64,000 bases of DNA from the IMG/VR virus record IMGVR_UViG_3300047160_005727, positions 77,144 to 141,143 of that record, one strand, 5' to 3'. The notes beneath the pieces are model-generated. The model made no database searches and had not been told where the DNA came from. It saw only the letters and a program-made list of their open reading frames with translations. Both the position numbers and the translations under genes were made by a program. The stretch's first letter is position 1, and the number at the start of each line of letters is the position of its first letter. The stretch comes from a virus. Positions 8,874 through 63,077 of this stretch are shown in pieces.

Positions 8874-8888
8874 GTTACGCGGCGTATC
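8874..8888. promoter_or_regulatory. 15-bp palindrome, copy 1 (abuts the sigma-factor RBS)
   Basis: GTTACGCGGCGTATC. Confidence 0.7.
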
Positions 8889-8897
8889 GGAGGGACC

Positions 8898-9689
8898 ATG
8901 CCCAGCACTTTCAAGCCAGTCAAGATCGATGACTTCTCCAGTCCGGGTAACCGGCTCGAACCCAAGTTCGCGCCGGCTTTCCATACCTGGTCGGCCGATC
9001 CCAGCCCGGCCAACTCCGACCAGTTCCTGAAAGCCATCGATCCGATCGTCCAGGAAGGGCTGAACGTCTATGGGGGACGCAACGCCAACCCGATGATGCG
9101 GAGCCGGGCCCGCCGGATCGCCCTCGATGCCGCCACCAAGTACGATCCCAGCAAGGCCAGCCTGAAGACCCACCTGATGGCCCATCTTCAGGGCCTGCGT
9201 CGCTACGGCGCGCAGCAGAACCAGGTGATCCATGTTCCCGAGGCCGTGGCCCTCGATCAGCATCACCTGGGCGAAGCCGAGGCCGAGCTGAGCGATCAGC
9301 TGGGTCGTGATCCCTCTGACGCCGAGCTAGCCGATCATATGGGGCTCTCCCGCCGGCGCATCGCCCACATCCGTGGCTACCGTCCAGCGGTACCCGAGGG
9401 GCGGTTGGCCTCCCTGTCTGATGAAGATGAAGAAGGGGGTGCCGGAGGCGGGTTCGAGCCGGCCGTGGAAGGCCCGGACCGGTCTATGCTTCGTGCCCAG
9501 TTCCTTTATCATGACCTTGACCCGCACGACCAGGTGATCCTGGAGTACGGCATGGGTTTGAACGGGTCACCCAAGCTGCCGGCCGCCCAGATCGCCCGAC
9601 GGCTGCGGATCTCGCCGGGTGCTGTCAGCCAGCGGGCAGCGCGCATCCAGCAGATGCTCGATGAGTTCGAGGACACCAACGTGCTGTGA
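8898..9689 (+). CDS. Phage-encoded sigma-70-family sigma factor (group 3, FliA/SigF-like architecture)
   Basis: Region 2 'LDAATKYDPSKASLKTHL', region 3 'QLGRDPSDAELADHMGLS', region 4 HTH 'AAQIARRLRISPGAVSQRAARI'; GGAGG RBS. Confidence 0.85.
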   Translation: MPSTFKPVKIDDFSSPGNRLEPKFAPAFHTWSADPSPANSDQFLKAIDPIVQEGLNVYGGRNANPMMRSRARRIALDAATKYDPSKASLKTHLMAHLQGLRRYGAQQNQVIHVPEAVALDQHHLGEAEAELSDQLGRDPSDAELADHMGLSRRRIAHIRGYRPAVPEGRLASLSDEDEEGGAGGGFEPAVEGPDRSMLRAQFLYHDLDPHDQVILEYGMGLNGSPKLPAAQIARRLRISPGAVSQRAARIQQMLDEFEDTNVL

Positions 9690-9696
9690 GGATGAC

Positions 9697-10143
9697 ATGC
9701 CAAGCAAGGGTAAGATCCACGACGTATTCCAGAACGACATTCAGCAGCTTACTACCCAGGCCGGGCAGCAAGCGGACATGATCCGGGGCAAGGGAACCCG
9801 CCCTTGGAACGATCCGAAGTGGTCGGATGCCAGTAAGCCCAAGAGCCCGCTCGATATTCCTGGCATCACGGACGGCTTCAACCGTGACCAGATCGACACC
9901 AACTACGGCCAGCTGATCCAGTCTGGCTCCGATGCCGGCACTGTCGGCGATGTGATCTGCGTCAAGACACAGGGTGACTACATCGCCGAGATGGAGCGGG
10001 GCTACCGGGCCAGGCATGCCACGCCGGTTCGGTGCATCGGCCACGCAATGGCTCGGCGTAAGGGTCATTCGATGACCAACGGCGTATTCCAGGGCGGCGT
10101 GCTCAAGCATGTCCAGGATGCGCTGAAGGGAGGCCAGAGTTGA
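9697..10143 (+). CDS. Hypothetical protein
   Basis: ATG 9697 with GAGGA; coupled to neighbours. Confidence 0.6.
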   Translation: MPSKGKIHDVFQNDIQQLTTQAGQQADMIRGKGTRPWNDPKWSDASKPKSPLDIPGITDGFNRDQIDTNYGQLIQSGSDAGTVGDVICVKTQGDYIAEMERGYRARHATPVRCIGHAMARRKGHSMTNGVFQGGVLKHVQDALKGGQS

Positions 10144-10652
10144 ACGGCGACCCACGGGTCTACGATGTTCTGGCACTTCAAGGCGCCAAGCCCATTGGTG
10201 AGGTTCTGCTCCAGCAGATCCTCTTCACCGATGCTGCCGCGGGTATGCTCTGCACCGGGATCCAGAAGCTGGCCCAGCGGTTTGTACTGGAACTGCTCAC
10301 CGAGCTGGGCTCGATGCTTTATCTGCCCAACCGCGGTACCAGGTTCCTGATCCAGTTCTACCAGGGCTTGCTCCGCACCGAGACCGATGTCTTCATCGCA
10401 TTCAACCTCGCCCTGAACGATCTCGAGTTGAGCCTGACCGCCGAGGAGCTGGATACCGATCCGCTCGACGAGCGATACGGCAGTGCCAACCTGGACTCGG
10501 TACTCATCACCAACGGCAACATCATCATGCACGTTACGTTGCGGAGTCTGGCTGGTAGGTCCCGCCAGGTGATCATGCCCATCTCGACTACGCCCGGCAT
10601 CGTTGCCACGCCGACCGGGACGACGCCTGAAGTGCTCACGACCACAGTCTGA
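10140..10652 (+). CDS. Baseplate wedge/sheath initiator (gp25-like)
   Basis: 'GIQKLAQRFVLELLTELGSMLYLPNRGT' resembles the gp25 LxTxxGxxxxxPxxG motif; directly upstream of J-like gene. Confidence 0.7.
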   Translation: MNGDPRVYDVLALQGAKPIGEVLLQQILFTDAAAGMLCTGIQKLAQRFVLELLTELGSMLYLPNRGTRFLIQFYQGLLRTETDVFIAFNLALNDLELSLTAEELDTDPLDERYGSANLDSVLITNGNIIMHVTLRSLAGRSRQVIMPISTTPGIVATPTGTTPEVLTTTV

Positions 10653-10663
10653 CGGAGGCTCGT

Positions 10664-19440: not shown

Positions 19441-21873
19441 ATGGCCTCGATCAACCCGGACTGGTACGCCGGCAACGCGACCCGAGCCTATCCGCTCGAT
19501 GACGCGGCGACCGCGCGCGACGATGCCGGGAAGGAGCTGCCGTCCCAGATCCTGGTCGACTGCCGGATCAAGTTCCCCTCGAACCTGGGGCAGTATGCCT
19601 ACGTCAGTGGCGTGACCGTCAGCCCGAACCTCGTCACGGTCATCATGTTGGCAACCTCCAATGCGGTTCGTATGCCCGGAGGTATACAACCCGTCAGCGC
19701 GCCTGACCAACCTCTGTGTGCTGTCTCACTGCCGATGCCGGTCGTACCCTACCGTCACTATCCGATCCAGCCGATGGCCGATGGCGTGGGAGGCTGGCTG
19801 GTATTCGGCCGCGGGATCGATGAGTCCTATTCGGGTCGGTTCAGTACGCCCGGGCAGACGATCTTGCTGCCACGCGTGGCTTCGGCCTACGATCCGCTGC
19901 CGATCCCGACCCTGGGCAAGCTCGGTGTGGATCCACCCCTGACTGGCGTGATCCAACTGCTGGGAGCTACCGATCTGGAGGTAGTGCAGGACACCCGCGA
20001 GATCCCCATCAACGGCACGCCGGTCATCGTCGACGCCATCATCATCCGCCTGGTCGACAGCTTGAACCGCAACGTCTTCAGCCTTTACACAGGTCCGTGC
20101 GGCGGCCGGCCCGAAAGCGACTCCTGCAACAAGCCGGCGGTCGAGTCGATCAACGGCGTCGTGCCTGACTGCGACGGCAACCTGACCATCAACTTCCAGG
20201 GTGTGAACGTCTACGACTATCTCAACGGCGGCGGGCAAGCTCTGGATCTTCCGCTGGGCATGGCCGAGGTCTGTCTGGGCCAGGACTATCTGCCCGACAA
20301 GGATGGGAACCTGCCCAGTGACTTTCCTGGCGACTGCCAGCCTGGGCCGCAGGGGCCGCAAGCACCGCCCGGTGGTGAGACGCCGCCTATTGTTCTGCCG
20401 CCGGGCTGCTTCCCGATCCCGTTCTGCGAGAGCTTCGACGAGCCCACGGTGCCGACGACATGGGTCGTGCCATTTGGCCCGTTCAACCTGGACGCTGACG
20501 ACTCGCCGGTCGAGCCCTGCGGTCTGACGTCTCCGGGTGGTACACCGATCAACCAGAGCTACGCCACCACACCAACACAGCTGAATGCGTCGGTCTGGAA
20601 CTGCGTCTACAGCGTGCGGCCTGACAGTACATCGCCCTTGCGCTGCACGGTGCACCTCAAGCTGATGCCCGGTACCAATGTCAACGGCGGCATCATCTGG
20701 AACTACTTTCTGGCTGATCCCTGGGAAACTCCCCCGTCAATGACCTTCCTGTGGGTCGGGATCGATATGAGCCGGAACGCCCTGGGGATCGGCATCTTTA
20801 ACGGCACCACTGTAGTGATGTCCGAGTGGGTCACGTTCCCGACAGGCAACGTGCCCAAGGTCGGCGAATGGTACGAGCTGAGTGTCTATGCTCTCGCTGA
20901 TCCTGAGTTCTGGGCCCCACCCTACAACCTGTACCAGCAGTACATCACCCTGAGCGGGGTCACGGATACGGCGTTCCAGAAGATGACGCCGATGTTCAAG
21001 TTCGCGATGAACTCTTACGGCGGACTGGCCGGAGTCGGAGCGAACAACGCGCATACCCGGTTCAGCTGGTTCAAGCTCGAGTACATCGACGCACCGCTGG
21101 GCTGTGTTCCGCTGCCTTACTACGACACTTTCGACGGCACGATCCCGACAGCATGGATAGCTGAGTTCGGAACCTGGGTGGTCGAGAACGATGACTCGCC
21201 GGACGAGCTTTACGGACTGAGCGCTCCAGGATCCGGCGTACCGCCGGGTGTGCAGGCCGGCTTCATCGAGACACCGCCGTTCCATCGTGGGGCCAGGACC
21301 GAGGCAACACCCGCTACCGTCCCCATCAACCGGAGCTATACCGCCATCGATCAGTCGATGCGCAACGTGTCGATATGGGACTGCGGGTACGACTGCCGGG
21401 ACGGGCTGTTCATATCGACCGCTTTCAAGATGATGCCTGGCAGCCAGATCAATGGTGGCATTGTCTTCAACTGGCTCGACAACAACCCGGACTTCAAGCG
21501 GCCGACCTACATGATGGCCACACTGGACCTCACCGGTAACCGCATAGGGATCTATTACTACTACGGTGCTACGGCCACGATGAGCGAGTGGGTGAACCTG
21601 GAGAGCAACGTGCCCAAGGCTGGCGAGTGGTACCACATGAAGGTCCAGCTCTACCCCGACGCCGCGAATGGCGGCGCGCCCTTCTGGCTGTACCACGTCA
21701 TCGTGACCGTTACTGGCGTTACGGATACAGCCTTCAAGGCGGTGTCGACTGACTTCCCGCAGGACCTTGCCTATCCCGGCAGTAAGGTCGGCCTCGGGAC
21801 GACCTACGGTCATACCCGGTTCAGCTGGTTCCGGGTGGCGAGTACTGACGAACCACCACCGGGGACACCCTAA
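19441..21873 (+). CDS. Tail-fibre-type protein, paralog 3, with two tandem lectin-like beta domains (candidate receptor-binding protein)
   Basis: 'NATRAYPL', 'VESINGVVPDCDGNLTI'; internal duplication about 20407-21090 and 21103-21840. Confidence 0.65.
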   Translation: MASINPDWYAGNATRAYPLDDAATARDDAGKELPSQILVDCRIKFPSNLGQYAYVSGVTVSPNLVTVIMLATSNAVRMPGGIQPVSAPDQPLCAVSLPMPVVPYRHYPIQPMADGVGGWLVFGRGIDESYSGRFSTPGQTILLPRVASAYDPLPIPTLGKLGVDPPLTGVIQLLGATDLEVVQDTREIPINGTPVIVDAIIIRLVDSLNRNVFSLYTGPCGGRPESDSCNKPAVESINGVVPDCDGNLTINFQGVNVYDYLNGGGQALDLPLGMAEVCLGQDYLPDKDGNLPSDFPGDCQPGPQGPQAPPGGETPPIVLPPGCFPIPFCESFDEPTVPTTWVVPFGPFNLDADDSPVEPCGLTSPGGTPINQSYATTPTQLNASVWNCVYSVRPDSTSPLRCTVHLKLMPGTNVNGGIIWNYFLADPWETPPSMTFLWVGIDMSRNALGIGIFNGTTVVMSEWVTFPTGNVPKVGEWYELSVYALADPEFWAPPYNLYQQYITLSGVTDTAFQKMTPMFKFAMNSYGGLAGVGANNAHTRFSWFKLEYIDAPLGCVPLPYYDTFDGTIPTAWIAEFGTWVVENDDSPDELYGLSAPGSGVPPGVQAGFIETPPFHRGARTEATPATVPINRSYTAIDQSMRNVSIWDCGYDCRDGLFISTAFKMMPGSQINGGIVFNWLDNNPDFKRPTYMMATLDLTGNRIGIYYYYGATATMSEWVNLESNVPKAGEWYHMKVQLYPDAANGGAPFWLYHVIVTVTGVTDTAFKAVSTDFPQDLAYPGSKVGLGTTYGHTRFSWFRVASTDEPPPGTP

Positions 21874-22637
21874 TGAGGATCATCCATCCGGAATATCGCA
21901 ACGAGCATCAGAACACGAACTACCCGTTCGCGGACACGGCCACCTTGCTCAGCCGCGACAAGATCGCCTTGTCCCAGGGCATGTTCATCGATGCTTCGAT
22001 CTTCCCGATCGGTGGCGGGCCACGGCCATACATCTCGTCGCTTCAGGTCGGCAACCGGCTCGTCACGATCTGGATCGGCGATACCTCGAACAGCCAGCTC
22101 GCCGCGGGCTCGTTCGATCCGCTGGCACCGCCCGACATGATCGGCCTGGTTGACGTGTACGGCCGGCCCGCTGGGCTGTTCGTGACCGATCCCATCCAGC
22201 TGGCGGCCGCCCAGTCCTGGTCTTCGGGTACGCACACGTTCGACATCGGGACCACCGAGTTCGCCGCCAGCTGCACGATCTCCACGCCGGAGCCGGGCGT
22301 GCGCGGCCTGATCGCTGCGCAAGGGCTTCTGCTCACTGGCGACGCCTGGCTCGTCGGCGAAGACGGCGTGGTGCTCAGCGTCGACCCAGACGATGGCTCC
22401 AACATCGTGGTCGACGTGGTGGGTGATCCGCTCTACGCGCGCCGGCAGTGTGCACCGGCGGGCCTGTTCAACACCCCGCGGTTCATCAAGACGATCAACG
22501 GCGTGCTGCCTGATGCCGAGGGCAACTTCCAGTTTTCAGTCGCTACGCTCACCGCCAGTGATACGATCCTGCGCATTATTCCTGAGCCACCCGATACGCT
22601 GCGTATTAGCCTGGTGGGTAAGTCGGTTCAAGGTTGA
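21873..22637 (+). CDS. Tail-fibre-type protein, paralog 4
   Basis: 'HQNTNYPF', 'IKTINGVLPDAEGNFQF'; TAATG coupling. Confidence 0.6.
   Translation: MRIIHPEYRNEHQNTNYPFADTATLLSRDKIALSQGMFIDASIFPIGGGPRPYISSLQVGNRLVTIWIGDTSNSQLAAGSFDPLAPPDMIGLVDVYGRPAGLFVTDPIQLAAAQSWSSGTHTFDIGTTEFAASCTISTPEPGVRGLIAAQGLLLTGDAWLVGEDGVVLSVDPDDGSNIVVDVVGDPLYARRQCAPAGLFNTPRFIKTINGVLPDAEGNFQFSVATLTASDTILRIIPEPPDTLRISLVGKSVQG
22593..22607. promoter_or_regulatory. 15-bp palindrome, copy 2
   Basis: GATACGCTGCGTATT. Confidence 0.6.
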
Positions 22638-26393: not shown

Positions 26394-26624
26394 ATGAAAG
26401 ACATGAATGGTAATTCATCCCGGGACCAGCACTGCTTCTGGTTGTTCCTGCTGCACTTCATCGTCGGCGCCAGCAGCTTTGGCTTCTGGTGTGACTCTCC
26501 TACCGATGTCAACCTCTGCTGGATGATCTACTGCAATGTGATGGCGATCATGATCCTCATCTACCAGGCGGTGTCGCGTGCCGCGGCAAAGCGACAGGCG
26601 AAAGAAGACGAAGCCTTCTTCTGA
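26394..26624 (+). CDS. Small two-TM membrane protein
   Basis: AGGA RBS; two hydrophobic segments. Confidence 0.5.
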   Translation: MKDMNGNSSRDQHCFWLFLLHFIVGASSFGFWCDSPTDVNLCWMIYCNVMAIMILIYQAVSRAAAKRQAKEDEAFF

Positions 26625-26678
26625 GCCGGCTCGTCCGCTATGCTGACAGGCGGAAATACTGGCATGGAGGACCACAGG

Positions 26679-27194
26679 ATGCGCGCCAAGACAGCTGACA
26701 CGAAAGATATCACCGAAGTCGCGGTTTCCCACGATACCACCACGGTCATCAGCGCCTCGGGTATACGCTCGATCACACTTGTGCCCACGTTCCAGCGCGG
26801 CTACGTGCCCAATGTGATCGACGGCTTCCGGTTCACGCTCCAGGTCACTGGGGCGATCCAGATGCCGACCAAGATCTTCCGCTACCGGCTCGTGCCCACC
26901 CAGGTGAAAGCCACCACCAGCGAGCCGCCGACCGCCGTCGAACTCAAGGGTGCGTTTGATGGCGTCTGTAGCCCGGCCGATCTCGAGGACTTCCCCGAGG
27001 ACTGGCCGGCCCAGAATGCCCGGCCGTCCTGGTACCGGCTCGACATGGTGGATCTCATCGTGCGCAGCCGATCGATCGCCGACGAAGCATACAAGGCGAT
27101 CATCTACGAGATCGAGCGGCTGATCGATACGCTCAACACCATGGATCAACAGGATGTAGCAGCCACGATCACCATCGGACCGGAGGTACCATGA
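26679..27194 (+). CDS. Hypothetical protein (start 26664 or 26679)
   Basis: GGAGGA RBS; coupled to next gene. Confidence 0.65.
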   Translation: MRAKTADTKDITEVAVSHDTTTVISASGIRSITLVPTFQRGYVPNVIDGFRFTLQVTGAIQMPTKIFRYRLVPTQVKATTSEPPTAVELKGAFDGVCSPADLEDFPEDWPAQNARPSWYRLDMVDLIVRSRSIADEAYKAIIYEIERLIDTLNTMDQQDVAATITIGPEVP

Positions 27195-27502
27195 TCGCCA
27201 GCAATACGCTGCGTAACATTATCACGATCGAGAACAGCACGATCGACGCCCTGGTCGTCAACGTGGCGTTCCAGCGTGAGTTTCCCTTCCTGGCTGGCCT
27301 GGTTCAGCCCAAGAAGACCAGTCGCTGCGGGCGTTGCCGCAAGAAGCAGCGGGCAACCCTGACCGAATACCGGAATTTCAAGAACGCCGTGGCGTCCATG
27401 ATCCCCCAGGACAAGATACGCTTCAAGCAATTCATGGGCTGCAAACAGGTTAGGGTAGTTCACGTCAACCCCGCCAACAAGGTCGTCGACCGGACTTTCT
27501 AG
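27191..27502 (+). CDS. Small basic hypothetical protein with CGRC motif
   Basis: GGAGGT RBS, ATGA overlap. Confidence 0.65.
   Translation: MIASNTLRNIITIENSTIDALVVNVAFQREFPFLAGLVQPKKTSRCGRCRKKQRATLTEYRNFKNAVASMIPQDKIRFKQFMGCKQVRVVHVNPANKVVDRTF
27203..27217. promoter_or_regulatory. 15-bp palindrome, copy 3
   Basis: AATACGCTGCGTAAC. Confidence 0.6.
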
Positions 27503-27506
27503 CACC

Positions 27507-27544
27507 CTAAACTGCGTCCGCGTTCATGTCATACATCATTGGAG
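27507..27544 (+). promoter_or_regulatory. Putative phage promoter motif, copy 2
   Basis: CTAAA-N16-GTCATACATCATTGGAG. Confidence 0.65.
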
Positions 27545-27678
27545 CCACTTAGGTGGCGATCCATCGGCCCGTGCGTTAGAGTACGGAAGCTACCATGAGG
27601 TCCGGGCCGGAACGAAGCACGTTGCTACACGGGTATCACTAGGTACCCGACCCCGTGGCTGCGGCCACGGGTGTTTTT
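27540..27678 (+). ncRNA. Candidate structured small RNA or attenuator leader
   Basis: Lies between a promoter motif and a terminator-like hairpin (27652-27678); several hairpins; no credible ORF. Confidence 0.35.
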
Positions 27679-27765
27679 ACTGTGCAGTTGCGCAGGAAGC
27701 GCTCGTGCCGGGACCTCGTCGTGTTCGAGACGGGTTCTATCCAGTTTTTAGCATGGAGCATCTGC

Positions 27766-28461
27766 ATGAAGCGACGTTTCTTCTGCACTGCGCTGGCGAT
27801 GTTGGCCGCGACTGTCATCGGCATGGGATCGGTGCAAGCCGGTACCGTTGTCATGACGGACTCGGGCAACATCGGCCAGTTCAGGGCAACCAACATGGGA
27901 GTGAGTGGGGGGACGGCAACGGTCGTCTTTGATATCCCCAACTTCACCTCCCAGTTGAACACGGTCAACGGGTTGTTCCTGGCAACACCCGAGCAGACCG
28001 CTGTTCCTGGGCCGGTCACACTGCTCGTGACCTCGACAGGGCCGGAGACCTACAACCTCAGCCTTGTGCCCTCGACGTATGAGCAGACGATCGGAGCGAC
28101 CCCTGCGACCCAGGCCATTCTGGACTTCACCCTTACCAAGGGTGTAGCTCCGGATGTGTTGCCCAACTTTTTCAACATGTCAGGGGCTATCACAAGTCTG
28201 GTCACCAACAGCAACCCCAACCTCGACTTCTCGAAGTTCGAGCCGGGCGGGTTCCAGAATGTCACCCTGACCGCCACGTCGTTCCAGAACGCGGCGAGCT
28301 TCGCGGGTTTCCTTGCCACTCCTGGCGCTGTCGCTGTGGGGAACGGCTCGTTCAGCCAGTCGGCTGTGCCCGAACCGGCCTCAGCGGCCTTGTTGGGTAT
28401 TGGCCTCAGCGGGATATTCGCATTGCAGCGACTGTTCCGTAGATCAGCTTGCAAGGCGTAG
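27766..28461 (+). CDS. PEP-CTERM sorting domain protein
   Basis: Signal peptide 'MKRRFFCTALAMLAA...VQA'; Thr/Ser/Asn-rich body; 'VPEPAS', TM helix, basic tail 'RLFRR'. Confidence 0.9.
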   Translation: MKRRFFCTALAMLAATVIGMGSVQAGTVVMTDSGNIGQFRATNMGVSGGTATVVFDIPNFTSQLNTVNGLFLATPEQTAVPGPVTLLVTSTGPETYNLSLVPSTYEQTIGATPATQAILDFTLTKGVAPDVLPNFFNMSGAITSLVTNSNPNLDFSKFEPGGFQNVTLTATSFQNAASFAGFLATPGAVAVGNGSFSQSAVPEPASAALLGIGLSGIFALQRLFRRSACKA

Positions 28462-28491
28462 GGTTATCGCTAGTCACGGTAACCTCACTGA

Positions 28492-28528
28492 GCAGCCCGG
28501 TCTGGCTTCGGTCAGGCCGGGCTGTTTT
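28492..28528 (+). terminator. Intrinsic terminator
   Basis: 15-bp stem with TTCG loop followed by T tract. Confidence 0.85.
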
Positions 28529-28533
28529 ATGCG

Positions 28534-28571
28534 CTAAACTTCGGGCCTTTTCTGGTCATATACAAGTGGAC
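28534..28571 (+). promoter_or_regulatory. Putative phage promoter motif, copy 3
   Basis: CTAAA-N16-GTCATATACAAGTGGAC, immediately after a terminator. Confidence 0.65.
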
Positions 28572-28623
28572 CCCGCCTATGTCGGGCGGGCCACGTTGTA
28601 AGACCGATACGGAGATCCGGACA

Positions 28624-28932
28624 ATGATGGAGTATCACTGTCTGAACGTCAGCAAGGACGTCTACAAGCTCGAACTGTTACCCAGAGGTTGCGGCCTCTG
28701 TGAACGGTGCGGTGATCAGGAGGCTGAACGCCATGTTCAGTCAGTGATCGCCGGCGAGCAGTTTGATGAGCAGCTCTGCGACATGTGCGCAGATAAGGCC
28801 ATCAAATGGAAGCCGGAGGTTGAACCGGTTCCACGGCAACGACCAGCTGCGACCAACGTCTCCTCCCGTGTTCTCGAACGGGCAAGACGTACCGCAGACT
28901 ACCGTGGTTCCTGGCGAAGCCTCGTCCGCTGA
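28624..28932 (+). CDS. Small Zn-finger protein
   Basis: CERC...H...LCDMC; GGAG RBS. Confidence 0.6.
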   Translation: MMEYHCLNVSKDVYKLELLPRGCGLCERCGDQEAERHVQSVIAGEQFDEQLCDMCADKAIKWKPEVEPVPRQRPAATNVSSRVLERARRTADYRGSWRSLVR

Positions 28933-30440: not shown

Positions 30441-30456
30441 GCTAGGTCAAGGCCCT

Positions 30457-30503
30457 GGACGGACGGTGGCTGCGCAAGCAGCTGCCGTCCGTTCCTTTCT
30501 TTT
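30457..30503 (+). terminator. Intrinsic terminator
   Basis: 17-bp stem, GCAA loop, CTTTCTTTT tail. Confidence 0.85.
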
Positions 30504-30522
30504 ACGCATCGGGTGACCTAGC

Positions 30523-39749: not shown

Positions 39750-40520
39750 TTGGCCACGAAGTCCATAGCCGAGGTTGTTACGCCGCGTATCCCCGGGCCG
39801 ATCAAGGTAAACGATGCCGGGGCTCACGGACCGTTTGCTTTTGTCAGAGGCATGCACCGGCTGATGTTTGACGAAGACTCGTTCGTCATCGTGCTGCACG
39901 GGGCGTTCAACGCGTTCGGGTTGATCGGGCCCGAGCACAACGGGATCAGCATCGTCTGCGAGAACAACAGCCGGGAAGTCATCATGACCCACCACCGCGC
40001 TCCGTCGGGAGGTGGGAAAGTCACCGATGATCAGCGCCGCGAGTACGAGCGGATCTGTGGTATGAACCAAGACGAGTTCAAGGAGTTCGTCAACAGTCAT
40101 CCCAAGGTGCAATACAAGATCATGCTTCCCAAACTACGGCCGATCGTCAAACCGAAGCTAGGCTTCCAGTCTGCCGACTTCGCCGCTACCAAGTTCGCCA
40201 CGGCGACAGACAAGCGACTGTTCATCGAGGACCTGATCCAGTTCTTTTGCAACCATTGTGAACGTGATCAGTTCACCCGCCGTATCTACGACGGGTTGTA
40301 CCTGCATCTCGGACACATCGCCCACTACAACCTGCACCAGTTCTACAACACGTGGTTCGAGGAACCGGTCATGCGCGTCCAGTTCCTGGAGCATCACGAG
40401 AAGTACCCGGTACCTGGCGACTGGCGTGACGTCGCTGACGCATTCCAAGCGTGGATCATGGGCAAGGAAGGCCAGGCAGTCCTCAAACACTATCGAAAGG
40501 AAGCAGGGCATGAGTCGTAG
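39750..40520 (+). CDS. Hypothetical protein
   Basis: AAGGAGG RBS, TTG start. Confidence 0.7.
   Translation: MATKSIAEVVTPRIPGPIKVNDAGAHGPFAFVRGMHRLMFDEDSFVIVLHGAFNAFGLIGPEHNGISIVCENNSREVIMTHHRAPSGGGKVTDDQRREYERICGMNQDEFKEFVNSHPKVQYKIMLPKLRPIVKPKLGFQSADFAATKFATATDKRLFIEDLIQFFCNHCERDQFTRRIYDGLYLHLGHIAHYNLHQFYNTWFEEPVMRVQFLEHHEKYPVPGDWRDVADAFQAWIMGKEGQAVLKHYRKEAGHES
39777..39791. promoter_or_regulatory. 15-bp palindrome, copy 4
   Basis: GTTACGCCGCGTATC. Confidence 0.7.
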
Positions 40521-42885: not shown

Positions 42886-43734
42886 TTACTTCCAGATCAT
42901 CTCGGGAAGTTCTTTGTTCTCTGCGAGAGCCGCGTAGAGTGCGAGGGTGTTCGAGTGCTCTTCGATGAGTGCCCGCTGCGTATAGAAAGCGAAGTGTGAG
43001 AACAGGGCTTCACCGCAGATCATCGATGGCCGTCGCACTGCTGCCGGCTTCTCGCAGGACAACCACAACTCTTCATCCCTCCCTACCGCTCCCTCGAACT
43101 CGGCGAAGTCTTTGCCCAGCCACGAGATGACGTTGATCGAGCACCGCTCGTAGCCCGAAAGCAGATGGTTGTCGAAGGTGTACCGGTACATCTCACCGGC
43201 GTTCAAGTGCTGGAAGAATAACTCATGGAAGATGCGGACGTTCGCGGGTTCCTTCCATGAGAATGGGCACTCGCAAATGTAGGTCAGGGGCCCGACGTCG
43301 AGTGGGATGGCGCCGTGTTCCCGGTGGAGGAAGTTGCAAATGCTGTTGTTGATGACGTTGCCGTGGATCAGGAATGGCTCGGGGTGAGCGACCCGGCAAG
43401 CGACGATCTTCTCGATGGCGTTGGAGGCCATCCAGATGATGTCGTCGTCGAGCCGAACATAGACTGTGTCAGGATCACAAGCGTGCTTGTAGAAGTTACA
43501 GATCGTGTAGCCGCTGAATGGCTCGGACGGCTTGGGTTCGTTGTAGCGCACCTCGTAGAAGTCAGGGAAGTCAGCCACGAGCTGTACCATGTACGCGATG
43601 TCATCCGCATCGGCGGTGTTCACCCACCAGACATGCTTGTTGATGACGTGCCGGTTACGCAGCAGGTGCTGGTGCATGATGTGCATGTACCTACGCCGGC
43701 CAGCCGGCGTTACTGTGACGACTCGGTGTCGCAT
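42886..43734 (-). CDS. Glycosyltransferase-like protein (GT-A fold)
   Basis: 'VTVTPAGRRRY' N-terminal strand, 'YVRLDDDIIW' DxD motif, late 'FSHFAF' His. Confidence 0.7.
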   Translation of the reverse strand: MRHRVVTVTPAGRRRYMHIMHQHLLRNRHVINKHVWWVNTADADDIAYMVQLVADFPDFYEVRYNEPKPSEPFSGYTICNFYKHACDPDTVYVRLDDDIIWMASNAIEKIVACRVAHPEPFLIHGNVINNSICNFLHREHGAIPLDVGPLTYICECPFSWKEPANVRIFHELFFQHLNAGEMYRYTFDNHLLSGYERCSINVISWLGKDFAEFEGAVGRDEELWLSCEKPAAVRRPSMICGEALFSHFAFYTQRALIEEHSNTLALYAALAENKELPEMIWK

Positions 43735-44393
43735 TTACACACCCACCAGGAATGATCGTGATATAAGACGTTCATCCCGCCTGATGTTCGCGCTGAAAAG
43801 TTCTTGACAGCATTGACAACTCCGGGCCAGAAGCGTTCATCGTAGTCATCGCCACACATGATGCCGCCGACTTCGAGCAGCTGCCAGTAGTTGTTCATGT
43901 CGCGCGTCACGTCCTCCTCGTCGTGCGATGCGTCGATGTAGATGAACTGCGCTGTGTACCCAAACCTGCGCAGGAGCCTGAAGCCGATGTCGCTCGTGGT
44001 TGGGAGTGGAATGATCGCGTCCCGATAGCCTTTGTGGATGACGTTTGCCAGGAAGTGGTGATAGGTCGTCGGATGACCATACTGCCGCCTCATGGTGGTC
44101 GACCAGTCGGGGCTGTCCGGAGCGGGCGGCCATGCTTCCAGCGAGCCCAGCCAGGTATCGACACAGATCATCTCGAATGGACGGCCCATTGCTTTCATGG
44201 CATCGGCCATGAAGAATGCCGAGTTTCCCAGCCAGGTACCGACCTCGATGATCCGCGATGGTGCGACGTTGTTTATAAGCCCGAGAGCTTGTTTGGGGAG
44301 GTTGAAAGCGGTGGCGTAGTGAAGAGGGTATTCCCATGACGGGAAGCCTTCGTATGGATCAGTCCCGAATAAGCGTTCCAGTAGTCGCGTCAT
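43710..44393 (-). CDS. Class I SAM-dependent methyltransferase (Methyltransf_24-like), copy 1
   Basis: 'IIEVGTWLGNSA', 'CVDTWLG', 'FIYIDASH', 'GGIMCGDDY'. Confidence 0.85.
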   Translation of the reverse strand: MTRLLERLFGTDPYEGFPSWEYPLHYATAFNLPKQALGLINNVAPSRIIEVGTWLGNSAFFMADAMKAMGRPFEMICVDTWLGSLEAWPPAPDSPDWSTTMRRQYGHPTTYHHFLANVIHKGYRDAIIPLPTTSDIGFRLLRRFGYTAQFIYIDASHDEEDVTRDMNNYWQLLEVGGIMCGDDYDERFWPGVVNAVKNFSARTSGGMNVLYHDHSWWVCKCDTESSQ

Positions 44394-45049
44394 GGTTTCC
44401 TGATCCACCAGGAACAGTCAGCGTTCGTGAACCCGAGCGGGCAGCCTGTCCGCTTCACGAGTTCATCAACTGCGGCGATGACTGCGGGCGTGGAAGAGTA
44501 GTCGTCGCCGCACAGGATACCACCTGGCTCAACCAACTCCCAGTAGTTGTTGACGTCCTGTGCTACATCGGCCTTGATATGCGAGCCATCGATAAAGATG
44601 AACTGCGCCGTGTAATTCAGGCCGGCCAGGATCTCGTAGGCGATAGCGCTGGTGGTCGGGAAGGGAACGATCTTATCTTGGAGCCCCTTCTTGATGACGT
44701 TTGCCAGGAACTGATAGTAGACCGTCGGGTAGCCATAGCGGGGTTTCAAGCCACGGCATTCGGGGATGACCTTGACGATCTCCGGCATCCACATCTCTTT
44801 CAAGCCGAGCCAGGTATCGACGCAGATCATCTCGAACTGGATGTCCATGGCCAACAGTCTGTCGGTCATGAAGAATGCTGAGTTGCCCTTCCAGGTACCG
44901 ACCTCGATGATCCGGGTCGGCCTGACCTCATGGACAAGATCAAGGGCGATCGCAGCCAGGTTGAAGCCGGCGTGATCCAGCTCGAGTAAGTCGGCCGGAA
45001 AGCCGTCGTACGGGTTTGTCTCGAAGAGCTGCTCAAGCATTCCCATCAT
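44390..45049 (-). CDS. Class I SAM-dependent methyltransferase (Methyltransf_24-like), copy 2
   Basis: 'IIEVGTWKGNSA', 'CVDTWLG', 'FIFIDGSH', 'GGILCGDDY'; start 45049. Confidence 0.85.
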   Translation of the reverse strand: MMGMLEQLFETNPYDGFPADLLELDHAGFNLAAIALDLVHEVRPTRIIEVGTWKGNSAFFMTDRLLAMDIQFEMICVDTWLGLKEMWMPEIVKVIPECRGLKPRYGYPTVYYQFLANVIKKGLQDKIVPFPTTSAIAYEILAGLNYTAQFIFIDGSHIKADVAQDVNNYWELVEPGGILCGDDYSSTPAVIAAVDELVKRTGCPLGFTNADCSWWIRKP

Positions 45050-49145: not shown

Positions 49146-49415
49146 ATGAGCGGTCCGTTCAACTGGAGTAGTTTCCAACAAGTCCACCCTACCCGCGCCG
49201 AGGTCCAGCGCGCATCCGAGGTGGGAGAAGACGAAGACGACCTCGACGACATCGAAGAAGTGGAAGATGACGATGACTTCGATGACGATGATGATGATGA
49301 TGACGAACTTGACGACGATCTTGATGACGACGACGATGACGACATCGACGATGACGAAGACGACGAAGACGACGAGCCGGCCGACATCGAGGATGCGCTG
49401 GAAGAGGTCGTCTGA
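49146..49415 (+). CDS. Small extremely acidic (Asp/Glu) protein
   Basis: TAGGAG RBS, ATG 49146; GAY/GAR tract about 49225-49410. Confidence 0.75.
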   Translation: MSGPFNWSSFQQVHPTRAEVQRASEVGEDEDDLDDIEEVEDDDDFDDDDDDDDELDDDLDDDDDDDIDDDEDDEDDEPADIEDALEEVV

Positions 49416-49417: not shown

Positions 49418-49432
49418 GTTACGCGGCGTATC
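49418..49432. promoter_or_regulatory. 15-bp palindrome, copy 5 (intergenic, abuts an RBS)
   Basis: GTTACGCGGCGTATC. Confidence 0.7.
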
Positions 49433-49445: not shown

Positions 49446-49676
49446 ATGGCCGGGATCTGGATCAGTGGCGCTGTCATCATCACGTCCGTGATCTCGATCA
49501 TGGTCATCCGATGGTGGCCTGTTCGCAGGCCGCCATCGGCCTCCCCGTCTGATCCGCGTGTTCGCTGTTGGCGCCAGCACGTCAAGGGCCGGAGAAGTAT
49601 CCGCCATCCGCGCGGACATCGTCATCGGTCCATCCCACCTCGGCATTCCCGGCCTGTCGAACCTGATAAGCCGTGA
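49446..49676 (+). CDS. Small membrane-anchored peptide (3' end overlaps terL antisense)
   Basis: GGAGGAG RBS; N-terminal hydrophobic helix. Confidence 0.4.
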   Translation: MAGIWISGAVIITSVISIMVIRWWPVRRPPSASPSDPRVRCWRQHVKGRRSIRHPRGHRHRSIPPRHSRPVEPDKP

Positions 49677-51519
49677 GTCGGTAGTTGGCGCCGATCGCGA
49701 AGTCGGGCCAGGCATCGTTGGCGTGCCAAATGGCCGCACAGCCCAAATTCACCGCCTGGGCGAAGTCGTCGGTAAAACCCTGCGCGCGCTTGATGAGGTA
49801 AATATCGCCTGCATGCGTTCCTGGCCGTTTTTCGTCGATCAGCGCTAAAAAGTCGTGAAGCAGTCCTGGGATGTCATCGGACTTGAAGTCATATTTGAAG
49901 AAACGGACCAGTCGCAGCTTTATCGAAGAAGTTACGTAAAGCAGGCTACGGGTCTTATCCAGCGAATACCAGGTTCGCTGGTGCTGGACCGTAGGCTGAT
50001 GAAACGTCATGAGCGAGTGAGTTGCCGATCGGACATACTGGATCGGAATGATCCGGTCGAGTGGTACACCAGCCTGCACCAGGAATGTCTCACGGAGGAT
50101 GCCAGCGCCGGTATAGTCGTGTGCGACGTACGAGGGCTCGAACAGCTTGAAGTAGTTGAGGATCTCCTTGGCTTCCTGGATGTGCTCATGGGGGTTCAAG
50201 AGCCGTCGGCCCCAGAGCACATCGATCTTACCGTCGTTGCGAAACCCGAGCAGGGCCAAGACCGTGAATGACACCCCGTCTTCACCACCGCCGCCCCAGT
50301 CGATCCCCAGCACGGTCGTCCGGTAGGTGCGCAGCCACGCGAAGACTTCTTCGCACGGCTCCAGCGGGTTGTTCTCCCAGGGTAGCTCGGCCGCGGCCTG
50401 GAGATCAGGCAGCGTCAGCAGCTGGTTGCCCGTTGCCGATGACTCGCCCAGGATCTCGTTGATGAAAACGTGCGGTGCCGTGTTCGCGGCACCTTCCCGC
50501 TTCTGGAGCAGTTCTGACCATTTCTTGGGGATCGCGTAGTGCAGGGGCATGATCGGCTGGGGCACATGTAGTCCCAAGCGGTCCCAGCGGCGATCAGGGT
50601 GCCGGTGCACCCAGCGGCCATATCGCGGGTTGATCGGTTTTCGGCATTTGTGGCAGATGGTGCCCGGGCTGGCCTCGGAGATGTCATCCCGGAACGGGCC
50701 CAGCATCTTCTCCAGGTGATGCTCCAGGCTGGCGATATTCCAAGTACCGCAGGCGAAACACGGCGTGAACCACTCGGCCCGGCTCGATCTCATCCACTCC
50801 CCGTGAATGAAGTTATCGAGTGTCTTAGGGGTGCCCGTGATCTGGGTGATCCCGTACTCTTTCGAGGCTGACATGGTTTCTCGAATGATCGGTATGTGAT
50901 CGGGGTCCATGTCCTGGGCTTCGTCGATCCCGACCTTCTTGGCCGGAATGCCGCGGACACGGTCAACGTCGAGCAGGGCGAACGAGAAGAACATCTTGCT
51001 GCCGTTGTTGAACGTGCGCAGCAAGACGTTTCCTGTGGTCTCTGTCGAGACCCAGAGATCGCGCACCGGGGACTGCTTGATGAAAGACCCGACATATTCG
51101 GTCGAAAACCGGCGGATCTGCTCGTACCTGGGCGTCACGAACAGTGTCGAGAAGTAGGGGATCGCGTTGGACAGGGCCACGCCATGGCTAGCCAGAGATG
51201 TCGACTTCGAGACCTGCCGGCCGGTCATCAGGACCAGGTTGGTCGGCATCTGTATCCGGAATACCGGGCTGAACGGGAAGTAGTCGTAGAGGCTGTACGG
51301 CGTGCCGTTCAGGTTGAACAGGAGCGGCAGCAGAGTCTCGAGTGTCTGGATACCGCCGGCTTCGCACAGCTTCCGGACAGAGATGATCCGGTCGATGTCG
51401 CTGACTGCCCTACTATCCTTCTCGACCTGCTCCAGATCGCCCAGGATCGCAGCTGTGTCTTTGAGTCGCCGCTCTGCGGCCAGTTCTTCTTTACCCGGCG
51501 TTTTTAGCGCAACTGCCAC
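49582..51519 (-). CDS. terL: Terminase large subunit (GpA-like)
   Basis: Walker A 'TGRQVSKST', Walker B 'VGIDEAQD', motif III 'TGTPK', CxxC pair, nuclease 'LGIDWGGG' and 'DDFAQA'. Confidence 0.9.
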   Translation of the reverse strand: MAVALKTPGKEELAAERRLKDTAAILGDLEQVEKDSRAVSDIDRIISVRKLCEAGGIQTLETLLPLLFNLNGTPYSLYDYFPFSPVFRIQMPTNLVLMTGRQVSKSTSLASHGVALSNAIPYFSTLFVTPRYEQIRRFSTEYVGSFIKQSPVRDLWVSTETTGNVLLRTFNNGSKMFFSFALLDVDRVRGIPAKKVGIDEAQDMDPDHIPIIRETMSASKEYGITQITGTPKTLDNFIHGEWMRSSRAEWFTPCFACGTWNIASLEHHLEKMLGPFRDDISEASPGTICHKCRKPINPRYGRWVHRHPDRRWDRLGLHVPQPIMPLHYAIPKKWSELLQKREGAANTAPHVFINEILGESSATGNQLLTLPDLQAAAELPWENNPLEPCEEVFAWLRTYRTTVLGIDWGGGGEDGVSFTVLALLGFRNDGKIDVLWGRRLLNPHEHIQEAKEILNYFKLFEPSYVAHDYTGAGILRETFLVQAGVPLDRIIPIQYVRSATHSLMTFHQPTVQHQRTWYSLDKTRSLLYVTSSIKLRLVRFFKYDFKSDDIPGLLHDFLALIDEKRPGTHAGDIYLIKRAQGFTDDFAQAVNLGCAAIWHANDAWPDFAIGANYRLTAYQVRQAGNAEVGWTDDDVRADGGYFSGP

Positions 51520-60231: not shown

Positions 60232-60789
60232 ATGATGCTAAGTACGCTGATCCTTGTTGCTGTTCTCGGTCAGTCACCAGCGACCGCCAAGCCGCCTGAA
60301 GCTGCCCCGGTCAAGAAATGGTGGGTCCTGTCCAACCTGTCTGGTTGGGAGGGCTATGGCCCGATGAATGAGAACGGCTGGATCATTACCGAAAAGTTTC
60401 GCCGGATCGGGACAACTGAGGAAGTCCCACCTGCCAAGCCTGGCGAACAGACCGCAACGGCCGCGACGACTACCACGGTCGAAGCTGATCCATACGGCTT
60501 CTTGTCCTGGCTAAATGCCACCAGGGCTGCATACGGACTAGCGCCGGTGGGCCATGACCCGAACTTGTCGGCCTGGGCAGCTGAGAACAATAACCATCAA
60601 GCTGCCCGCGGCATGGGTCATTACGTGATGGGTCCAGCTCGCCGCCAGAACTCGGCGTTCGGCTCATTCGCCAACATCGGATCGATGTGGATGAACTCGG
60701 GAGGCCATCGTGCGGCCTTGCTCGATCCGACAATTCGCTTTATGGGCATTGCTGGCCTCGGCGCTTATTGGACTTTCAACGCGTACTGA
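60232..60789 (+). CDS. Secreted CAP (SCP/PR-1) domain protein
   Basis: Signal peptide; 'LNATRAAYGL...DPNL..WA', 'GH', 'WMNSGGHRAALL...MGIA'. Confidence 0.85.
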   Translation: MMLSTLILVAVLGQSPATAKPPEAAPVKKWWVLSNLSGWEGYGPMNENGWIITEKFRRIGTTEEVPPAKPGEQTATAATTTTVEADPYGFLSWLNATRAAYGLAPVGHDPNLSAWAAENNNHQAARGMGHYVMGPARRQNSAFGSFANIGSMWMNSGGHRAALLDPTIRFMGIAGLGAYWTFNAY

Positions 60790-61441: not shown

Positions 61442-61467
61442 CATTCCGCATTGCCGAAGGAGGATCC

Positions 61468-61833
61468 ATGACAAGCGAACAGATCTTCGCACGGCTCCAG
61501 GAGGCGCTGGAGAAGACCTTCTGCCCGGTCGGCGGCTGCTGGGGCCTCCATGGGGCGAAACTCGAATGCTTCTACGACCCGAACATGGAGTCCCATGTCC
61601 TGGAGGCATGGCCCCACGCCTTCAACGAAGACCAACCCGAGGGCAACGGCCACAAGGCCGGCGCGCTCTACGAGCTGGCCGAGTTCGACTTCACCACGCT
61701 GCTTGAGGAGATCGACCTGGAGAGCTTCCACTTCAGCCAGATGCGGCAGGTCTTCGAGATCAGCTGGCACGAGGGGGATAAGCTGCTGGAGCTGAGGCTT
61801 CACATCGAGCCCCATAAAGATGACGAAGGGTAA
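61468..61833 (+). CDS. Acidic hypothetical protein
   Basis: AAGGAGG RBS, ATG 61468. Confidence 0.7.
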   Translation: MTSEQIFARLQEALEKTFCPVGGCWGLHGAKLECFYDPNMESHVLEAWPHAFNEDQPEGNGHKAGALYELAEFDFTTLLEEIDLESFHFSQMRQVFEISWHEGDKLLELRLHIEPHKDDEG

Positions 61834-61857
61834 TGACCATACTCACAGGAGCCATCC

Positions 61858-62232
61858 ATGGATCAGCCATCGTCCAACGGCGCGCTTGGCGGGCTGGGTC
61901 GGCCAATTGACGTCAAGACCATGATCGGCACCGGGGCGATCTATGGCGCGCATATCGCTTGCCCGGTATGCAGGTTCGAGTATACCCATCCCGTCGCCGT
62001 CGTGGTCAACGCCGGCGGCTCGATCACGACCGTCGACAAAGGTGGGACCAGGATGTCTGCGGGTAAGCCCGTGGACCGCGGTGTCATGATCGAGATCCAC
62101 TTCGTGGGGGAGTGCGGCCACGACTACCGGCTGAACTTCCATTTTCACAAGGGGATCACTTCGGTCGAAAGCACGATCGGCGGCGGTACGCCGGATGACA
62201 GGCAGCCCCCGGCCACGATCTGGCGTGACTGA
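61858..62232 (+). CDS. Hypothetical Zn-binding protein
   Basis: AGGAG RBS; CPVC...H...ECGH...FHKG. Confidence 0.7.
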   Translation: MDQPSSNGALGGLGRPIDVKTMIGTGAIYGAHIACPVCRFEYTHPVAVVVNAGGSITTVDKGGTRMSAGKPVDRGVMIEIHFVGECGHDYRLNFHFHKGITSVESTIGGGTPDDRQPPATIWRD

Positions 62233-62245
62233 AGCCCGCCGCCTT

Positions 62246-62345
62246 GTAACGGTCAGGTTCGTTCGCGGGCCTGACGATCCGGGAGGCCGCTTGCGGCGCT
62301 GCCCGGAGGGGCCGGCCAGGGTTATCCTTGGCCGGCCCATTTTTT
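62246..62345 (+). repeat. REP-like element, copy 2 (with an extra inserted hairpin; likely also a terminator)
   Basis: GTAACG-GTCAGGTTCG-ttcg-CGGGCCTGAC-GA ... GGGCCGGCCAGGG-ttat-CCTTGGCCGGCCC-ATTTTTT. Confidence 0.7.
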
Positions 62346-63077
62346 GCGCGTTACGCGGCGTATCGTTCGCACACCGATGACGCAGCCGACGCCGAGGCAA
62401 AGCAAGACTACACTGGCTGGCTCTGGTACCGCTGACGATACGAAGTTGTAGGTGAGTGTTACCGAGACACCGACATCGGTGAGCACGGCACCGCCACCAT
62501 TGCCAGTGCTCGAAACGAAGCTCGAGATAGCCCGTGCTTTGACGTCCAGATCGACTGGGCTGGTTCCGATGAACTGATCCGCAAGGCCACCTGCAAAGGT
62601 CTGAGCTACTGCGCCCTGTGATATGAGCTGCGGCGGGATGTAGTGAGGGTCGGTTGGCGGCAGAAACGACGACCATGTGTTGCCAGTATCCGTTCTCTTG
62701 ATGACGGCGACCGGCGCCGACTGGTTGAGCAGAAGTGACGTACCATCGGGACCGTAGAGCGCTGCTGACGGTCCATCAGAGAGTTTAGCGACAGCGGACG
62801 GATCGTCCAGGATCGTGGTGTCGATGGTCGCCGTCGTCGTGATGTAAAGGGTGGACTGCTGCGAAGGAAACATCAACATGAAGTAGCTGTTGGCGTCCAT
62901 CGACATGGTGACCTTGATGTTGGTCAAGGTTCCATCAGCCGGGTTGAACGCATTGAATGTCAGCGGTTTCGTCCAGTCAGTCTGGGTCAGAGGCATGGAC
63001 TGGACCTGCGTGATCGATCCGCCGGCCGCGATGGTCGGCAGAGCGAGCAGCAGTAGGAAAGCCAGGAACTGGCGCAT
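62322..63077 (-). CDS. PEP-CTERM protein with choice-of-anchor E-like domain
   Basis: Signal peptide; 'TDWT..LTFNAFNPADGTLTNIKV...VTLTYNF'; 'VPEPAS', TM helix, 'RTIRRVTRKK'. Confidence 0.88.
   Translation of the reverse strand: MRQFLAFLLLLALPTIAAGGSITQVQSMPLTQTDWTKPLTFNAFNPADGTLTNIKVTMSMDANSYFMLMFPSQQSTLYITTTATIDTTILDDPSAVAKLSDGPSAALYGPDGTSLLLNQSAPVAVIKRTDTGNTWSSFLPPTDPHYIPPQLISQGAVAQTFAGGLADQFIGTSPVDLDVKARAISSFVSSTGNGGGAVLTDVGVSVTLTYNFVSSAVPEPASVVLLCLGVGCVIGVRTIRRVTRKKWAGQG
62350..62364. promoter_or_regulatory. 15-bp palindrome, copy 6
   Basis: GTTACGCGGCGTATC. Confidence 0.7.

Follow-up and report, generated by a model that had tools for sequence, protein, structure and literature searches.

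The 64 kb of viral DNA analysed here (the window) form the last 64 kb of the IMG/VR contig G000 (record IMGVR_UViG_3300047160_005727; 141,143 bp, CheckV completeness 68%), and they carry six dispersed copies of a short palindrome with the core TACGC-N-GCGTA. In this phage and in two of its relatives the core was found to be exact and strongly over-represented, and most of its copies are retained at orthologous places. On the basis of these sequence properties it is quite likely that a dimeric protein binds the dyad site, and the barrier or boundary role which is put forward below for such binding is speculative.

Sequence, symmetry and conservation of the palindrome

A scan with the exact pattern RWTACGC-N-GCGTAWY (RWTACGCNGCGTAWY) returned six matches in the window, at positions 8874, 22593, 27203, 39777, 49418 and 62350, and these are precisely the copies listed in the initial annotation of this DNA; from dinucleotide shuffles of the window 0.00 copies of the 15-mer were expected. 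The 11-bp core TACGC-N-GCGTA occupies the same six positions (0.05 expected from shuffles). Copies 8874, 49418 and 62350 are one identical 15-mer, GTTACGCGGCGTATC, and copy 39777 departs from it at the central base alone, so the three identical copies and the fourth differing at the centre were also read correctly at the outset.

Two related virus records carry the core as well. G001, found via the exact 15-mer, is a complete 226-kb virus record, syntenic with G000 at about 72% DNA identity, and G006, found via the sigma-factor protein of the phage, is a 103-kb record of about 74% identity; G006 is the sister of G000, with G001 as outgroup (68% vs 65% mean protein identity). The core is present in 12 copies in the whole G000 contig (141 kb), in 14 copies in G001 and in 6 copies in G006, which is about 100-200 times over expectation in all three genomes, the 12 cores of G000 standing against 0.07-0.17 expected under analytic Markov models of orders 0-5. 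A shuffle of synonymous codons within genes, in which protein and codon usage were kept, gave 0.28 coding cores (maximum 2) against the 9 observed, and in a second codon-preserving comparison 5 coding cores were observed against 0.33 expected. The comparison with a high-order Markov and codon-aware background, which had been proposed as a check of the palindrome, therefore left the count far above expectation. An unbiased scan of all 5-N(0-6)-5 palindromes placed TACGC-N-GCGTA at the top in G000, G001 and G006, with a more than 10-fold lead. Cores with one mismatch numbered only 2, 2 and 1 in these genomes, respectively, against chance expectations of 2.1, 3.6 and 2.2: recognition of the core is all-or-none, without a halo of degenerate copies.

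The anatomy of the site was derived from a logo of 32 copies (12 from G000, 14 from G001 and 6 from G006). The 10 core bases are invariant in 32/32 copies, while the central base is free (A in 12, T in 9, G in 7 and C in 4). Symmetry extends beyond the core, since G at position -7 (27/32) mirrors C at +7 (20/32) and Y at -8 (31/32) mirrors R at +8 (23/32), and the full site is a 17-bp dyad, YGW-TACGC-N-GCGTA-WCR, an example of which in duplex form is CGTTACGCGGCGTAACG. At positions ±6 (2 and 14 of the 15-mer) W stands on both sides, and the two bases form a Watson-Crick pair in only 8/32 copies. The original description as a 15-bp palindrome has thus to be amended: the symmetry holds and reaches 17 bp, but the 15-mer itself is imperfect at positions 2 and 14.

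Because the W/W positions pair in so few copies, the symmetry would be that of a dimer on duplex DNA and not that of a stem. The commonest variant has a DNA hairpin energy of -1.2 kcal/mol, no better than shuffles, and an RNA hairpin energy of -1.4 kcal/mol, worse than 192 of 200 shuffles (z-score +1.46); no pairing covariation was seen at the outer positions among the 32 copies, no Rfam family matched in the window, and one and the same 15-mer is used in both orientations relative to the genes (G000 compared with the G001 sites 28752 and 62470). Neither an RNA element nor a directional promoter fits well with the hairpin energies, the absent covariation and the two orientations, which favour a dimeric protein on double-stranded DNA. 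The earlier suggestion of a dimeric-protein site is consequently supported on the side of the DNA, by two-fold conservation, free centre, both orientations and negligible hairpin, whereas on the side of the protein the binder was not found.

For 8 of the 12 G000 positions, among them window copies 8874, 39777, 49418 and 62350, G001 and/or G006 carry an exact core in orthologous position. Nothing but the palindrome is conserved as a block in the intergenic spacers. At the junction preceding the sigma gene all three genomes have the same order of stop codon, 2-6 nucleotides (nt), palindrome, ribosome-binding site and ATG in a spacer which has otherwise diverged, and the sigma gene belongs to the site set, as had been supposed. 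Copy 49418 is conserved at the same junction in G001; for copy 62350 the matching G001 site was placed at its junction through a rough mapping of synteny, and the flanks do not align. Copy 39777 is kept in G001 (there V-T-Q-R-K), where the centre base differs at a non-synonymous position, and in the copy within the glycosyltransferase-methyltransferase gene (peptide R-Y-A-A-Y) the free centre is a synonymous position and varies as T/A/A. Synonymous third positions within the core are identical in 13/13 pairwise comparisons of the conserved coding copies, against 51% in the flanks (P ~2e-4, or ~6e-4 with independent comparisons only). Conservation at orthologous and at synonymous positions, the second check that had been proposed, is therefore present.

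The remaining four copies are confined to G000 (window copies 22593 and 27203 are among them), and at these places the relatives differ at about 4 to 9 of 15 positions. The sequence orthologous to copy 22593 differs at 5 (G001) and 4 (G006) of the 15 bases, and that orthologous to copy 27203 differs in both relatives at about 6. Since G000 and G006 are sisters, the G000-only sites would by parsimony be gains, reached via several substitutions inside genes. Selection appears to keep the sites at a density of about one in 12-16 kb.

The four copies of G000 that are wholly intergenic (window 8874, 49418 and 62350, and G000 23168) are one 15-mer with G in the centre and in one orientation, while the orthologous G001 and G006 copies differ from them in centre and flanks. 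It therefore looks as if the free positions had been made uniform inside a genome, either through copy correction or through an optimum particular to the lineage.

In eight further relatives, with RNA polymerases of 50-58% identity, the number of cores is 0-2, and G007 has none; the element is therefore confined to a narrow clade. No dispersed palindrome was detected in G007 and G011. Five short contigs with two cores (L013, L016, L036, L029 and L026) were discarded as further carriers: four of them (all but L026) represent one virus, and there is no significant excess. A metagenome search for further sigma loci gave only two distant fragments, both without the site, and megablast revealed no close deposited phage relative of G000.

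Placement of the sites along the genome

The sites are concentrated at gene junctions. At most 40 nt from a called gene end lie 8 of the 12 sites in G000 and 12 of the 14 in G001, such zones making up 12-14% of the genome (P = 1e-5 and P = 3e-9, respectively). A typical site begins 2-11 nt past a stop codon and finishes 3-29 nt before the next start, and the distance of sites to start codons ranges from -29 to +27 nt. If the 15 bases were taken out, about 10 nt would be left at most of these junctions, an operon-internal length. Four G000 copies lie deep in genes, 146-1,188 nt from the nearer gene end, and their hosts include genes of 1,576-1,971 amino acids (aa).

The sites are also spaced more evenly than expected. 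The smallest gap is 4.6 kb in G000 (P = 0.005) and 7.1 kb in G001 (P = 0.0007), i.e. spacing is over-dispersed, and the coefficient of variation of the gaps gave P = 0.0006 and P = 0.002 for the two genomes, respectively.

Within the window (coordinates are given without strand) the copy at 8874..8888 (GTTACGCGGCGTATC) is intergenic, 2 nt past the stop of a 553-aa gene (7210-8871) and 9 nt ahead of the ATG of the phage sigma-factor gene (8898..9689, plus strand), which was recognised by Pfam Sigma70_r3 (1.4e-06, above cut-off) and Sigma70_r4 (3.7e-04) and has orthologues in G001, G006, G007, G008 and G009. The copy at 22593..22607 (GATACGCTGCGTATT) is located in gene 21873-22637, 30 nt before its stop and in frame 0 (D-T-L-R-I), and that at 27203..27217 (AATACGCTGCGTAAC) lies 12 nt into gene 27191-27502; both are lineage-specific. 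The copy at 39777..39791 (GTTACGCCGCGTATC) lies in gene 39750-40520 (codons V-T-P-R-I), 27 nt from its 5' end and past its ribosome-binding site and TTG start, and the same holds in G001. The copy at 49418..49432 (GTTACGCGGCGTATC) is intergenic, 2 nt past the stop of gene 49146-49415, and precedes a 45-codon open reading frame (49446) and the 3' end of the large terminase gene (49582..51519, minus strand; Pfam GpA_ATPase 4.1e-08, with tblastn matches to annotated terminase large subunits at 23-29% identity), which is convergent with the gene array ending at this copy. The copy at 62350..62364 (GTTACGCGGCGTATC) is intergenic as well, 5 nt past a terminator-like hairpin with a T-run; this intrinsic-terminator-like element (62308..62345, plus strand), recognised by sequence reading and by a hairpin/T-run scan, consists of a 12-bp GC-rich stem followed by TTTTTT directly upstream of the palindrome.

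The initial annotation had placed four of the six copies inside unrelated proteins, close to gene ends. This has to be revised for copy 62350, which is intergenic and not in a credible protein, and copy 39777 is only just inside the 5' end of its gene; that the palindrome is not a protein motif is nevertheless supported, for embedded copies occur in all three reading frames of unrelated proteins.

The gene at 49146-49415 codes for an 89-aa protein with a strongly acidic C-terminal tail (…DDDEDDEDDEPADIEDALEEVV), the stop codon of which is 2 nt from the palindrome copy. The acidic tail is kept in G001, and the rest of the protein is without detectable similarity.

A sigma28-like motif, CTRAA-N15-18-GTCAT, occurs on the plus strand 9 times on the contig (window 25128, 27507, 28534, 39659 and 56758; G000 32656, 33338, 34052 and 49696) and 7 times in G001; it is plausible that it is a promoter for the FliA-like sigma factor of the phage, independent of the palindromes. 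The sites do not track this motif or terminator-like hairpins, with the exception of window copy 62350, directly after its terminator. The genes downstream of the sites have no common functional theme, and nearly all are without a family. In one orthologous group and in one further G006 copy the ATG follows only 3-6 nt past the palindrome, without a Shine-Dalgarno sequence (G000 42156-42164, outside the window; G001rc 114331; G006rc 30601 and 40107), and from genome to genome the spacer differs in length by other than multiples of three, which points to translational coupling or to a leaderless transcript at these copies.

As to the phage itself, 131 of the 144 genes of G000 are on one strand (crude gene calls) and most of its proteins have no family. 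It encodes a multisubunit RNA polymerase in which beta is fused to the N-terminal part of beta' and the C-terminal part of beta' is separate: the fusion has 1,489 aa with Rpb2-type (beta) domains and Rpb1 domains 1-2 (L053:6514-10983; G000 26514-30983), and the second protein has 680 aa with Rpb1 domains 4-5 (L053:15091-17133; G000 35091-37133). The same arrangement is conserved, with 50-84% identity, in 10 contigs of IMG/VR whose lengths are 33-235 kb. The G001 regions absent from the G000 contig (L040-L051) code for a CsrA homologue (3e-22), thymidylate synthase, dihydrofolate reductase, an N6/N4 DNA methylase, several sulfo- and glycosyltransferases and a MazG-like pyrophosphatase, the last directly downstream of a palindrome copy. 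A PEP-CTERM sorting motif was noticed, at or near the family cut-off, in two phage proteins (window 27766-28461 and one other of G000), which may point to a host that is Gram-negative and has an exosortase system. At window 43710-45049, on the minus (minority) strand, lie two neighbouring Methyltransf_24 (sugar O-methyltransferase-like) genes, and a CAP/cysteine-rich secretory family protein is encoded at window 60232-60789; collagen-repeat and polysaccharide-lyase proteins are encoded elsewhere on the contig.

The predicted binder and the possible effect of binding

In the explanation which we favour, each copy would serve as a docking site where a sequence-specific protein of two-fold symmetry, probably a homodimer, binds double-stranded DNA with high affinity. 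The sites sit mostly between a stop codon and the next ribosome-binding site within very long co-directional gene arrays, and where a junction is scarce they would have been written into coding DNA. The bound dimer may act as a barrier or anchor which splits the genome into domains, most plausibly as a roadblock which stops or gates RNA polymerase across gene junctions, similar in its action to the stoperators of mycobacteriophages. Control of initiation is unlikely for sites that have no orientation, are spread evenly through transcribed DNA and in most cases fall within operons, and a conditional barrier is favoured over a purely architectural role because the junction preference is very strong. 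The explanation as a whole, docking site together with barrier, is a tentative one, and we would not claim even chances for it.

Several observations weigh against it. A permanent roadblock at the four sites deep in long genes would truncate transcripts, therefore the barrier would have to be conditional. The spacing tests in G000 and G001 share eight positions, hence they are not independent; two sites of G006 are 2.1 kb apart, which makes the even spacing not absolute, and the filling of gaps by new sites was not significant (P = 0.20). A Pfam search over 120 G000 proteins recovered the sigma factor as the sole DNA-binding module, and the sole lead for a binder, the protein P0001, is weak and present in G001 only, so that it is not linkable to the site.

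The predicted binder may be a phage protein from the approximately 85 kb missing from the contig, a family-less phage protein or a host protein. None was identified by Pfam among the proteins of the window or contig, in agreement with the initial annotation. Among 108 proteins of the G001-only regions Pfam pointed to one weak winged-helix reading frame, P0001 (121 aa), with HTH_20 and MarR_2 matches at E ~6e-4 to 2e-3, under the family cut-offs; its structural model has the helix-helix-helix-hairpin order of a winged helix at low confidence (predicted local distance difference test score, pLDDT, 59). P0001 has no homologue in the other fetched genomes or in IMG/VR and no significant sequence match in the PDB, and its Atlas neighbours are viral hypothetical proteins. 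The N6_N4 methylase of G001 was considered as a fused DNA-binding protein and set aside, since it has no extra domain. Profiling of clade-specific genes yielded about 55, none with a DNA-binding family and too many to single one out, and a literature search for the site sequence returned only primers and unrelated constructs, no described operator.

An architectural role is a possible, though less than likely, alternative. The copies would then serve to anchor or load a protein which condenses, loops or positions the DNA, in the manner of matS/MatP, SlmA or Noc sites or of dispersed centromeres, and the only reason for their place at junctions would be that 15 additional bases can be accommodated there. 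The even spacing in two genomes and the all-or-none recognition, which is typical of parS or O_B-type sites and not of graded regulons, keep this reading alive; the missing orientation, the variable distance to start codons and the sites written into the coding DNA of giant genes where junctions are scarce are in accordance with it as well. On the other hand, such a role does not require the very strong enrichment at junctions, a virulent phage has no obvious need of segregation, and the close G006 pair and the insignificant gap-filling speak against it too. Furthermore, ParB_N (PF02195) had no match in G000, the complete G001, G006, G008 and G009, control genomes being positive; the ParA-type ATPase (PF13614) had none in G000, G001 and G006, and tubulin/PhuZ (PF00091) had none in the same genomes. 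The parS/matS-like site that had been offered as one option at the beginning is thus not supported, the complete relative being without ParB_N, ParA-type ATPase and tubulin gene.

The roadblock explanation also has a wider form, which we regard as unlikely. The dyads would be the cis elements of an undescribed genome-partitioning system, in which a family-less dimeric clamp serves as roadblock terminator or insulator and divides gene arrays which run in one direction for over 100 kb into timed stretches of about 12-16 kb, new sites being actively selected into coding DNA. It may be likened to the roadblocks which Reb1/TTF-I or mTERF set to eukaryotic and organellar polymerases.

The binding of a recruited host transcription factor or nucleoid protein appears distinctly unlikely. 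It would account for both the missing phage binder and the narrow-clade motif, since the sigma factor is the sole recognisable DNA-binding protein of the phage and the relatives with an RNA polymerase of 50-58% identity, whose hosts may be different, lack the motif. Nevertheless, in a 15-mer scan of the genomes of 185,579 species the hits, among the matches listed, were scattered singles across unrelated phyla without clusters, the sequence is no described operator in the searchable literature, and with most phage proteins family-less the absence of a phage binder is weak evidence.

Of three further readings, each conflicts with one or more of the features tested. That the palindrome is a compact promoter or start-adjacent element for the multisubunit RNA polymerase of the phage, maybe as an extruded hairpin like that used by the N4 virion RNA polymerase, seems improbable. 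The phage does have a polymerase of its own, many copies end 0-5 nt ahead of a Shine-Dalgarno sequence, the short-spacer copies fit leaderless transcripts and one copy follows a terminator; but a symmetric site used in both orientations cannot alone set a direction, and the extruded hairpin would be no more stable than those of shuffles. A promoter should be directional, at a fixed distance and outside the genes it serves, whereas the distances here vary from upstream to downstream of the start, the conserved copy 39777 is beyond the ribosome-binding site and start codon and others are deep inside long genes. Where GGAGG abuts the site, a transcription start 4-5 nt downstream would remove the Shine-Dalgarno sequence, and there are only 12-14 sites for about 144-261 genes.

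A target of a sequence-specific nuclease, nickase or recombinase, that is, a cutting site or a hotspot of module exchange, is slightly less probable still. Exact recognition would suit such an enzyme, one G006-specific site is inside a G006-specific insertion, and at four junction sites divergence is greater in the upstream than in the downstream genes. However, cutting at 12-14 palindromes would fragment the genome, most blocks differing between the genomes neither begin nor end at a site, and the sites are kept in place, while homing or cutting targets are normally avoided or unique. Least credible of all is a short RNA hairpin for the processing, stabilisation, termination or translational control of polycistronic transcripts, for which the position in transcribed DNA between stop codon and ribosome-binding site and the CsrA homologue of G001 could be cited, but which is at variance with the hairpin energy worse than most shuffles, the unpaired outer W/W positions without covariation, the two orientations, the lack of an Rfam match in the window and the combination of free loop centre and invariant stem, the opposite of typical protein-recognised RNA hairpins.

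Returning to the docking-site explanation, its value is partly practical: the invariant 11-bp core within the 17-bp dyad is directly usable as a binding probe, and the binder, if found, would tell elongation gating from DNA organisation. The evidence of selection consists of the conserved synonymous sites and the gains by several substitutions inside genes, and the even spacing argues for a role in genome domains rather than at single promoters.

Comparison with known dispersed sites

The matS/MatP, SlmA and Noc sites are likewise short palindromes scattered over large DNA, and they are bound by dimers and serve organisation rather than control of initiation. These systems are host-encoded, their sites are confined to chromosome macrodomains and have unrelated sequences; no homologue of them was sought here. 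The O_B operators of KorB on the IncP plasmid RK2 are 13-bp palindromes, present in about a dozen copies and recognised exactly. As at the present sites, they are near-perfect palindromes with a free or semi-free centre, distributed over the whole replicon and in many cases far from promoters. The KorB-O_B and ParB-parS systems thus share with our case the dispersed near-perfect palindromes, but they comprise a ParB_N protein and a ParA/IncC-type ATPase, and neither of these partners was found in the complete G001; moreover, the replicon here is a virulent-looking phage and not a plasmid.

A parallel case exists among the distant relatives. G008 (IMGVR_UViG_3300024348_000001, first 180 kb; L093-L101), the RNA polymerase of which is 53% identical and the GC content 47%, has a dispersed palindrome of its own, (A)TAAGYRCTTA(T), with 21 copies of TAAG-NN-CTTA against about 2 expected. 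Around half of them are at junctions, where the TAA of the palindrome is often the upstream stop codon and a ribosome-binding site and ATG follow 11-19 nt downstream. It was rejected as a co-evolving analogue, since just one orthologous gene has a site in both lineages, the sigma gene is without a site and the spacing is uneven; it is a parallel case, not a proof of co-evolution. The apparent palindromes of G009 and G014 were rejected too, being tandem coding or terminal repeats and not dispersed sites: both ends of G009 have units of about 200-340 bp in which TTCGGAAACTCCGAA occurs (L082, L092; 1153-2110 and 203005-203434), the same genome has 15-nt coding repeats (GGTTGGCCCC…; L090-L091), and in G014 60/309-nt coding repeats with TGTCA-N6-TGACA at 51.6-53.4 kb (L107).

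The stoperators of Cluster A mycobacteriophages, with which the palindromes had been compared at first, are asymmetric sites oriented relative to transcription and bound by a monomeric immunity repressor of the L5 gp71 type (PMC9283540, PMC6550527). Common to both are many dispersed copies in short intergenic gaps or gene ends of co-directional arrays and, as proposed here, a bound protein which would block the elongating RNA polymerase. In contrast to the stoperators, the site here is a dyad in both orientations and its core is invariant, whereas stoperators tolerate mismatches. Cluster A phages are temperate and have a repressor and an integrase, while Phage_integrase (PF00589) and HTH_3 (PF01381, the Cro/CI-type helix-turn-helix) had no match in G000, the complete G001 and G006, serine integrases not being searched. 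Membership in a stoperator network can therefore be dropped on grounds of symmetry, orientation and lifestyle genes, and what stays plausible from that comparison is only the mode of action, a roadblock at junctions.

Compared by description, the closest parallel is the dyad repeat of the Cluster O mycobacteriophages (Corndog), the 17-bp TGTTCGG-N3-CCGAACA present in 34 copies, for which the authors considered control of initiation unlikely and predicted a dimeric binder (PMC4351075). The two have in common invariant inverted arms, a free centre and no rule of orientation to transcription; in both, copies are intergenic, just inside the 5' ends of genes or intragenic, predicted promoters do not coincide with them, the phage shows no obvious sign of being temperate, and a dimeric binder is predicted with the function unexplained. 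They differ in sequence and lineage, which are unrelated, a 70-kb siphovirus standing against a jumbo phage with its own RNA polymerase, and in the spacer, which is 3 bp in Cluster O and 1 bp here. The density of Cluster O, more than 30 per about 70 kb or one per 2 kb, is not reached by the one per 12-16 kb found here, about six to eight times lower, and the Cluster O copies are denser towards one genome end, whereas spacing is even here. The palindrome described in this article is a new example of a known, unexplained kind of phage feature and not a new category; dispersed dyad repeats of phages such as those of Cluster O are probably signs of a general layer of genome control in phages which has gone unstudied, and a jumbo phage that has an RNA polymerase and a sigma factor of its own here provides a clean example of such repeats.

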